From Escherichia coli (GTDB taxonomy: Bacteria; Pseudomonadota; Gammaproteobacteria; Enterobacterales; Enterobacteriaceae): DNA of 64,000 nt. Each line of letters starts with the position of its first letter. The first letter of the stretch is position 1. Shown one piece after another: positions 39,266-39,738 of this stretch. Where the stretch lies: the NCBI RefSeq assembly GCF_016026235.1, contig NZ_CP065613.1; one strand, 5' to 3'. The notes beneath the pieces are model-generated. The model searched no databases. It saw nothing but the letters and a program-made list of their open reading frames with translations, and was not told the DNA's origin. Both the position numbers and the translations under genes were made by a program.

Positions 39266-39456
39266 CGCAACATTTTTAAAAATCGACGAAGATCGTCCAG
39301 GAGCGCCGTTTTTCAAGGGTTGGATAGATGATTCGTTTACCATGTCGACGAACTTCGACGAATTTCGCCGATAAAAAGTGTCCCATACATGCCCCATTGA
39401 TGCCCCATAAACAATATCAGGAATTGACACTGGTTATCCATACAGATAAAAATAAC

Positions 39457-39476
39457 ACCTGTACATAACTACAGTT
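39457..39476 (+). promoter_or_regulatory. LexA (SOS) box upstream of the dinI-like gene
   Basis: acCTGTacataactACAGtt fits CTGT-N8-ACAG; a TTGACA -35 lies at 39424-39429. Confidence 0.55.
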
Positions 39477-39489
39477 ACAGGAGGGTGTT

Positions 39490-39738
39490 ATGCGTGTTGA
39501 GATCTGTATCGCTAAAGAAAAAATCACTAAAATGCCAAACGGTGCTGTGGATGCGTTAAAGGAAGAATTAACCCGACGCATCAGTAAACGTTATGACGAT
39601 GTAGAGGTGATCGTAAAAGCCACCAGCAACGATGGCCTTTCTGTTACACGCACCGCAGATAAGGATTCTGCAAAAACATTTGTTCAGGAGACTCTGAAAG
39701 ATACCTGGGAGTCTGCTGACGAGTGGTTTGTTCACTAA
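39490..39738 (+). CDS. DinI-family protein (prophage-encoded)
   Basis: 82-aa [34 protein letters not shown]…[11 protein letters not shown] with AGGAGG Shine-Dalgarno; resembles DinI. Confidence 0.8.

Follow-up and report, generated by a model that had tools for sequence, protein, structure and literature searches.

We analyzed a window of 64,000 nucleotides (nt) of Escherichia coli DNA (contig NZ_CP065613.1 of assembly GCF_016026235.1; "the window" below is this whole stretch), in which an open reading frame (ORF) for a small protein of the DinI family lies behind LexA-box-like sequences at the edge of a prophage. This unit is very probably a LexA-repressed, monocistronic accessory gene of the dinI type, situated at the attR-side, tail-fibre end of a lambda-like prophage integrated in mlrA, and it corresponds to the unit carried by the prophage VT1-Sakai (Sp15) of E. 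coli O157:H7 Sakai. Window positions 39150-39810 are ~99% identical to the left end of that prophage (AP000400.1), and the annotations of the record transfer to the window as follows:

39245-39264: attachment site (record positions 8051-8070, transferred via the 99%-identical alignment), the prophage attachment-site core and chromosome/prophage junction
39424-39452: "Putative promoter of H0001 and H0002 genes"
39457-39476: "Putative SOS box", described as LexA-bound
39490-39738: H0001, "DNA-damage-inducible protein I"

The finding is thus already known: AP000400.1 already carries this promoter, SOS box and dinI homologue. Since the record annotates exactly the elements named in the initial annotation of this DNA, which was made from the letters alone, the result is an independent rediscovery of an existing annotation. 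It has little weight as a discovery, because the VT1-Sakai record precedes it and Salmonella prophage dinI genes have already been shown to be LexA-controlled. What the present analysis adds is a second LexA operator, a terminator-bounded monocistronic structure, the exclusion of a Gifsy-type operon and an overlap with a published secondary attachment site.

The dinI-like gene and its two-operator promoter

The features that make up the gene and its promoter, in 5' to 3' order, are:

39424-39429, plus strand: -35 hexamer TTGACA, from a promoter scan; inside the putative promoter of AP000400.1
39428-39447: putative LexA box 1, CACTGGTTATCCATACAGAT, core CTGG-N8-ACAG, from a weight matrix; fills the spacer between -35 and -10
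39448-39453, plus strand: -10 hexamer AAAAAT, from the promoter scan, with an 18-nt spacer
39457-39476: putative LexA box 2, ACCTGTACATAACTACAGTT, core CTGT-N8-ACAG, from the weight matrix and the AP000400.1 annotation; covers the expected transcription start
39480-39484, plus strand: ribosome-binding site (RBS) GGAGG, 5 nt 5' of the ATG, by direct reading
39490-39738, plus strand: dinI-like gene, 82 codons for 82 amino acids (aa); Pfam DinI, PHROG 189

Judged by profile and alignment, the ORF, which had been proposed to be of the DinI family, encodes a full-length DinI homologue. The Pfam DinI profile (PF06183) matches it over positions 1-63 of 63 with 70.8 bits (E 1.2e-19), well above the curated cut-off of 24.2 bits, and PHROG 189, "RecA filament binding protein DinI", matches the protein with E 3.5e-31. 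Residues 1-81 align end to end with residues 1-79 of E. coli DinI (PDB entry 1GHH, also 7YWA; E 1e-12). The protein is a single domain collinear with E. coli DinI and has the C-terminal acidic motif TWESADEWF (family pattern TWESAD[D/E]WF). Ten IMG/VR loci encode a protein identical to it.

The promoter elements follow one another in the order -35, box 1, -10, box 2, RBS and ATG, with the two box centres 29 base pairs (bp) apart; box 2 starts 3 nt after the -10 hexamer and ends 13 nt before the ATG. The predicted -35/-10 pair has 10 of 12 consensus matches, an alternative -10 (TAAAAA, 39447-39452) would give a 17-nt spacer, and transcription is predicted to start at ~39460. Direct reading confirmed the -35 hexamer, the 20-mer with its CTGT-N8-ACAG core and the ORF at the positions first given for them. 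The LexA box proposed there, at 39457-39476, also holds up as the best match in the window; it had been taken to be the only one, however, and the second, at 39428-39447, had been overlooked.

Both boxes stand out when scored over their full length. Against the LexA consensus TACTG(TA)5CAGTA, box 2 matches at 14 of 20 positions and box 1 at 13, and the core of box 2 (CTGTACATAACTACAG, 39459-39474) is perfect. We scored the window with a symmetric 20-mer LexA weight matrix built on 28 E. coli sites (after the compilations of Lewis 1994 and Fernandez de Henestrosa 2000; training range 12-27 bits). The matrix stands in for the exact heterology index of Lewis et al., and its bit scores are approximate. 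Box 2 ranks first among 63,981 positions with 18.2 bits, and box 1 ranks third with 15.6 bits. The second-ranked match (AACTGGATAAAATTACAGGG, 14102-14121, 18.2 bits) lies 8 nt 5' of a 716-aa ORF (14129-16279) downstream of metG; the ORF is annotated as a WGR/DUF4132 protein and represents the molR locus. Because molR is a listed SOS gene (PMC6590174) and is outside the training set of the matrix, this match serves as a positive control.

The bare CTGT-N8-ACAG pattern is less telling. It occurs twice in the window against 0.68 expected occurrences, and 12 of 100 shuffled sequences contained it at least twice, so that on its own it is weak evidence. Its other occurrence (CTGTTCAGCCTGACAG, 42890-42905, 83 nt past the ipaH stop) has a GC-rich interior, scores below 6.5 bits, falls outside the top 15 matrix matches and is probably due to chance; we rejected it as a LexA box. 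For the box upstream of the dinI-like gene a chance origin is ruled out: the score over all 20 positions, a second box at a distance of 29 bp, the location in a promoter before a DinI ORF and the conservation in relatives together make it untenable.

To follow this conservation we compared the 75 nt upstream of each homologue with enough flank, which for 59 loci plus the window gave 21 distinct variants. In all 21 the -35 reads TTGA[C/T]A, box 1 reads CTG[T/G]TTAT..[A/G]TACAG (with CTG...CAG always kept), the AAAAT of the -10 region is invariant and box 2 reads CTGTA.....[C/T]ACAG. The variants form two main classes, which differ upstream of the -35, in the interior of box 2 and in the RBS region. 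Box 1 is a perfect CTGT-N8-ACAG of 20-23 bits in most relatives and is weaker, with a CTGG half-site, in the mlrA-type class, to which the window, VT1-Sakai and phage BP-4795 belong. The two-box layout also occurs in two phages, PhiR12_2 and BP-4795, with DinI proteins that share just 67% and 62% identity with the one in the window, whereas a single strong LexA box overlapping the -10 is found at K-12 dinI and at the dinI genes of Gifsy-2, one Klebsiella phage and one Aeromonas phage. In view of the two boxes that persist in phages with distant DinI proteins, and of the single box elsewhere, dual putative LexA operators are a trait shared by the family of E. coli b-region dinI units.

The dinI homologue of Yersinia phage YeP3 starts 11 nt after the preceding gene, and a LexA-like box is absent from the 160 nt before it; this homologue is probably expressed within a longer operon. 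At least one IMG/VR relative has the end of an IS1 insertion sequence (IS) directly 5' of the dinI-like RBS, where it replaces the SOS promoter, and the closest genome match, FDAARGOS_943 (NZ_CP065615.1), also has an IS1 within the region.

The layout suggests how the unit would work. In an undamaged cell, LexA dimers would occupy two operators bracketing the -10 of a strong sigma-70 promoter, with box 1 in the -35/-10 spacer and box 2 over the start site. DNA damage would trigger RecA-stimulated self-cleavage of LexA and free the promoter, and a transcript of ~380-390 nt would extend from ~39460 to the 39807-39850 terminator. Like E. coli DinI, the 82-aa product would attach to RecA filaments through an acidic helix at its C terminus, and the host SOS response would thereby receive an extra dose of DinI from the phage, perhaps to the benefit of the phage. 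Two operators bracketing the -10 predict tighter or later induction than at single-box dinI genes. Binding to RecA filaments and modulation of the co-protease are established biochemically only for E. coli DinI (PMC6590174), which at stoichiometric levels stabilizes the filament and at high levels inhibits UmuD cleavage and recombinase activity (reviewed in PMC6590174). That the E. coli prophage gene is SOS-induced we infer from the conservation of its operators and by analogy with the tested Salmonella Gifsy homologues.

Several points weigh against LexA control of this gene as described: (i) The tested Gifsy homologues are only 41% identical to it as proteins and differ in the number of operators and in where they lie in the genome. 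(ii) In the literature searched, no experiment on an E. coli or Shigella prophage dinI was found; the data concern chromosomal dinI, in enterohaemorrhagic E. coli, and the Gifsy prophages. (iii) Box 1 of the window allele has the CTGG half-site and the lower score. (iv) The -10 hexamer matches the consensus at only 4 of 6 positions, and the start site is a predicted one. (v) The scores from the LexA matrix are approximate.

The 3' region: terminator, attachment site and chromosomal relic

Downstream of the stop codon, the dinI-like gene has a non-coding region of ~110 nt, compared with ~45 nt at K-12 dinI, and three features fall in or across this 3' untranslated region (UTR):

39710-39806 (approximate): probable position of the secondary attachment site att-in-PP_2, spanning the final 29 nt of dinI and, of the 3' UTR, the part up to and including hairpin 1
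39760-39804, plus strand: 3' UTR hairpin 1, in which GGCUGG...CCAGCC closes a structured loop; nearly invariant
39807-39850, plus strand: hairpin 2 (39807-39839) and TTTTTCTTTTT, the intrinsic terminator of the dinI-like transcript, from fold and covariation

The RNA of 39736-39856 is predicted to fold into two hairpins at -32.3 kcal/mol (z = -3.85). Hairpin 1 is nearly invariant, and covariation therefore neither supports nor refutes its structure. Hairpin 2 was compared across 21 distinct sequences: in 4 of its 11 pairs both bases vary, several G-U pairs are accommodated, and pairing holds in 90.8% of cells, compared with 27-46% in slid controls. Because hairpin 2 is followed by TTTTTCTTTTT, it constitutes a standard intrinsic terminator in the window; its long loop kept a simple terminator scan from finding it. 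Some relatives lack the T-run and have a wholly different sequence past hairpin 2, and so this hairpin also marks a mosaic boundary. The dinI-like gene is monocistronic in the window. An ORF with a TTG start at 39728-39901 was considered and rejected as coding sequence, as it crosses the terminator and relatives carry a 1-nt indel (AAAA/AAA) in it.

These observations bear on whether the SOS promoter mainly serves downstream cargo, such as a Gifsy-style antirepressor, a ykgJ-like gene or type III effector genes, with dinI acting as a leader. There are precedents: dinI heads a LexA-controlled operon in the Gifsy prophages, with the antirepressor next, the VT1-Sakai record gives one promoter for H0001 (dinI) and H0002 (ykgJ-like), and BP-4795 has an effector gene after dinI on the same strand. 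Read-through is plausible in several relatives, where hairpin 2 has no T-run. In the window, however, TTTTTCTTTTT comes after hairpin 2, the neighbouring gene runs towards it on the opposite strand, and the only ORF through the 3' region is the one broken by the 1-nt indel in relatives. A Gifsy-type antirepressor gene was looked for downstream of the dinI-like gene and not found, its place being taken by the terminator and then the convergent gene; the ykgJ-like gene is absent from the window, and the starts of the methyltransferase and ipaH genes lie another 440 bp and 1.4 kb along, past the convergent remnant. A cargo-serving promoter is accordingly improbable here, and a monocistronic dinI-like gene remains the preferred reading.

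The same 3' region overlaps a site known from other work. Nakamura et al. (2021, PMC8112680) described att-in-PP_2, a secondary attachment site of 96 bp that lies within prophages, Sp15 and those at mlrA among them, and at which other lambda-like phages integrate, and reported 309 bp at 84% identity around it. We find that VT1-Sakai shares 309 bp at 83.5% with the chromosomal spacer between ecpE and ykgJ, which reproduces the published value. Window positions 39681-39827 are ~84-85% identical to this spacer, an unannotated spot in the core genome, and the homology ends at 39827 because the ykgJ-like part is missing from the window. We provisionally place att-in-PP_2 at ~39710-39806 because 29 + 96 + 184 = 309 and because the paper (PMC8112680) calls the att homologue intergenic. 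No integrated element is present at this position in the window.

Most E. coli genomes match only positions 39681-39827 of the window, and the spacer holds more than the att homologue. It keeps a decayed dinI coding sequence, with a match to window positions 39598-39642 at 80%; the last 70 nt of dinI are identical at 51-54 of 70 positions and the WESAD motif is lost, and the UTR part is identical at 64 of 70. Beyond ykgJ, a tail-fibre-assembly remnant matches window positions 39917-40020 at 78%. This relic (dinI 3' part, near-intact UTR, variable hairpin, then ykgJ and the tail-fibre-assembly (tfa) remnant) is present in nearly all E. coli genomes, for example at 3001-3148 of locus L086 and 3001-3152 of locus L087. 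Given the combination of decayed dinI, ykgJ and tail-fibre-assembly remnant, the chromosomal ecpE-ykgJ-yagU interval looks, from its sequence, like a fossil prophage end of the form dinI'-ykgJ-tfa', and may be such an end rather than the donor of the att sequence.

The well-kept UTR raises the question of whether the relevant product is an RNA, i.e., whether the 3' end of the dinI-like mRNA (39739-39850) is released as an SOS-induced small RNA (sRNA) resembling DinR. DinR is an Hfq-dependent sRNA that stems from the dinI 3' end in Klebsiella pneumoniae, where it needs a Klebsiella-specific insert (PMC10907235), and it provides a precedent. Also in line with an RNA product are the longer 3' UTR than in K-12, the two hairpins and U-run with their low z score, and the relic upstream of ykgJ, in which the UTR is better preserved than the dinI remnant. 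On the other hand, covariation is confined to the terminator hairpin and absent from hairpin 1, all phage copies are close relatives, and an Rfam search of 38900-40300 with E values up to 1 returned nothing for the promoter, gene or UTR, its sole match being IS009 in the tail-fibre-assembly remnant. Selection on att-in-PP_2 as an attachment site explains the conservation of the UTR at least equally well, and we therefore rate a DinR-like sRNA as quite unlikely, below the cargo-serving promoter.

A broader scheme would make the unit three things in one: a dual-operator SOS promoter driving a transcript whose 3' UTR is both att-in-PP_2 and the source of a damage-induced small RNA. We consider it unlikely, about as much so as a promoter that serves cargo. 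If it were true, DNA damage would couple RecA modulation, RNA regulation and the accessibility of an integration site for one prophage within another. The protein-coding dinI-type unit, ending at hairpin 2, continues to fit the data best.

Position at the prophage end and distribution

Further features locate the unit within the prophage:

39197-39265, plus strand: 5' fragment of mlrA (yehV), 22 codons followed by a stop made by the prophage insertion, by direct reading
39389-39408, plus strand: direct repeats, two copies of ATGCCCCAT at a period of 11 bp, on the stretch from the att core to the promoter, by direct reading
39854-40123, minus strand: truncated tail-fibre-assembly gene converging on the terminator, with the C-terminal part only of Pfam Caudo_TAP; annotated as partial tail fiber assembly protein

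The prophage/chromosome junction is in mlrA (yehV), beside btsS (yehU), and the dinI-like gene follows 226 bp into the prophage, which bears out the proposed prophage boundary. Upstream of the prophage, btsS/yehU occupies 37290-38990 on the minus strand. The mlrA fragment is annotated as yehV' in AP000400.1 and as a partial coding sequence in CP119441, and the remainder of mlrA is found beyond the integrase in a related genome. The closest complete genome, E. coli O121 strain 201805972 (99.8% identical), matches window positions 38610-45718 and has the order btsS, mlrA', dinI-like gene, tfa', methyltransferase, ipaH, tail fibre and lom, continuing to the integrase and mlrA. Window positions 45600-64000 match genes of a lambda-like phage that carry tail, head and terminase annotations. 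From these two matches it follows that the prophage starts at ~39265 and extends past the end of the window, with the dinI-like gene at its tail-fibre end (attR, b-region).

A third, degenerate copy of ATGCCCCAT is present at 39382-39387, and BP-4795 has four copies at the same place. The repeats are absent from the promoters of relatives in other att contexts. They could possibly be Int/Xis arm-type sites of an mlrA-specific integration module.

Between the tail-fibre-assembly remnant and the tail-fibre genes, positions 40180-42807 hold a gene for a class I S-adenosylmethionine-dependent methyltransferase and an ipaH-type E3-ligase effector gene with an NEL domain, i.e., effector cargo at the prophage end. 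This cargo points to a genome of the Shigella or enteroinvasive E. coli (EIEC) type. The Rfam family IS009 (RF02111) has a 129-bit match at 39897-40100 on the minus strand, within the truncated tail-fibre-assembly gene. The sRNA EcsR2 has been reported from the homologous K-12 region, the yagU-ykgJ spacer (PMC4350180). The IS009 "RNA family" appears to model a phage gene remnant.

The mosaic and partly degraded surroundings could also mean that the gene and its promoter are inert leftovers of a decaying prophage, in which LexA-like boxes no longer matter. The tail-fibre-assembly gene is truncated, related genomes carry IS elements, and in one relative IS1 has inserted between box 2 and the RBS. 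Decay has not reached the unit itself, however. The ORF is unbroken, with identical copies on 10 independent IMG/VR contigs, the promoter, both boxes, RBS and terminator are all intact, with promoter and boxes identical to those of VT1-Sakai, and the next 18 kb, with tail and head genes, has its matches in intact, annotated genes of phages. An inert leftover is thus very unlikely, the least probable of the explanations weighed here, and a functional LexA-repressed dinI-type gene accounts better for what is preserved.

The unit is widespread. DNA matches were found in 218 phage records, mostly Stx1- or Stx2-converting phages (Stx, Shiga toxin) but also mEp460, YYZ-2008 and phage cdtI, and usually at most ~1.5 kb from the record end or next to the integrase. 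A close relative is encoded on 199 IMG/VR contigs, and in 44 of the 80 best loci the contig ends within 1.5 kb of the gene. Among 5,426 complete E. coli genomes, 1,407 contain a copy that spans 80% or more of the query, and where a genome has any match, the matching places number 2 in the median and 10 at most. The description of the unit as a common lambdoid arrangement is correct for E. coli lambdoid prophages, in which it usually lies within a few kb of a prophage end. The unit is a useful anchor for annotation, since in this Shigella/EIEC-type genome it shows where a lambda-like prophage with an ipaH effector, integrated in mlrA, has its attR-side end. Because the number of matching places varies so widely, the total DinI dose after damage could differ strongly among strains, with possible effects on RecA-dependent prophage induction, including that of Shiga-toxin phages.

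Comparison with known systems

Experimental evidence on prophage-borne dinI genes comes from Salmonella. In the Gifsy prophages a LexA-controlled operon comprises dinI, a small antirepressor gene and irsA (Lemire et al. 2011, PMC3121763). Nalidixic acid induces the dinI homologues of Gifsy-1, -2 and -3 by 23-, 14- and 4.6-fold (PMC8072944), a tagged Gifsy-2 DinI homologue accumulates after mitomycin C, and replacement of the LexA-box region of Gifsy-2 abolishes damage-dependent prophage induction (PMC3121763). Non-polar deletions of the dinI homologues in Gifsy-1 and Gifsy-3 did not significantly affect induction (PMC3121763). The window gene resembles these genes in being prophage-borne and behind a LexA box, with damage induction experimentally shown for the Gifsy genes. 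It differs in that the proteins are 41% identical and the Gifsy genes have a single box, lie ~1.3 kb downstream of replication genes and are followed by the antirepressor gene. Whereas the Gifsy genes lie in the early region, past the replication genes, the window gene is 226 bp from the att junction and beside tail-fibre genes.

Chromosomal dinI genes offer a second comparison. Klebsiella dinI is damage-induced and shows LexA occupancy by chromatin immunoprecipitation (PMC10907235). Compared by description, it shares with the window gene a LexA box over the dinI start site and an extended 3' region with a terminator, from which DinR derives. The K-12 gene (b1061; 1GHH, 7YWA) is alike in family, length, C-terminal acidic motif and LexA control. 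The two proteins are ~45% identical (by eye from the alignment), and the K-12 gene has a single SOS box that overlaps the -10 and lies 19 nt from the ATG, a short 3' UTR and no prophage context, whereas in the window two boxes bracket the -10 and 13 nt separate box 2 from the ATG.

The closest counterparts are the prophages at mlrA. As in Sp15-type prophages at this locus, the 3' end and 3' UTR of the dinI-like gene lie inside the 309-bp homology region around att-in-PP_2. VT1-Sakai differs from the window in having the ykgJ-like H0002 after dinI, a hairpin 2 of other sequence without a clean T-run, and one annotated SOS box; in the window H0002 is missing, and the terminator is followed by the tail-fibre-assembly remnant, methyltransferase and ipaH. 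In other respects the two agree: both use the yehV/mlrA site next to yehU/btsS and have the same att core, their promoter and LexA box sequences are identical, and their 82-aa proteins are 98.8% identical.

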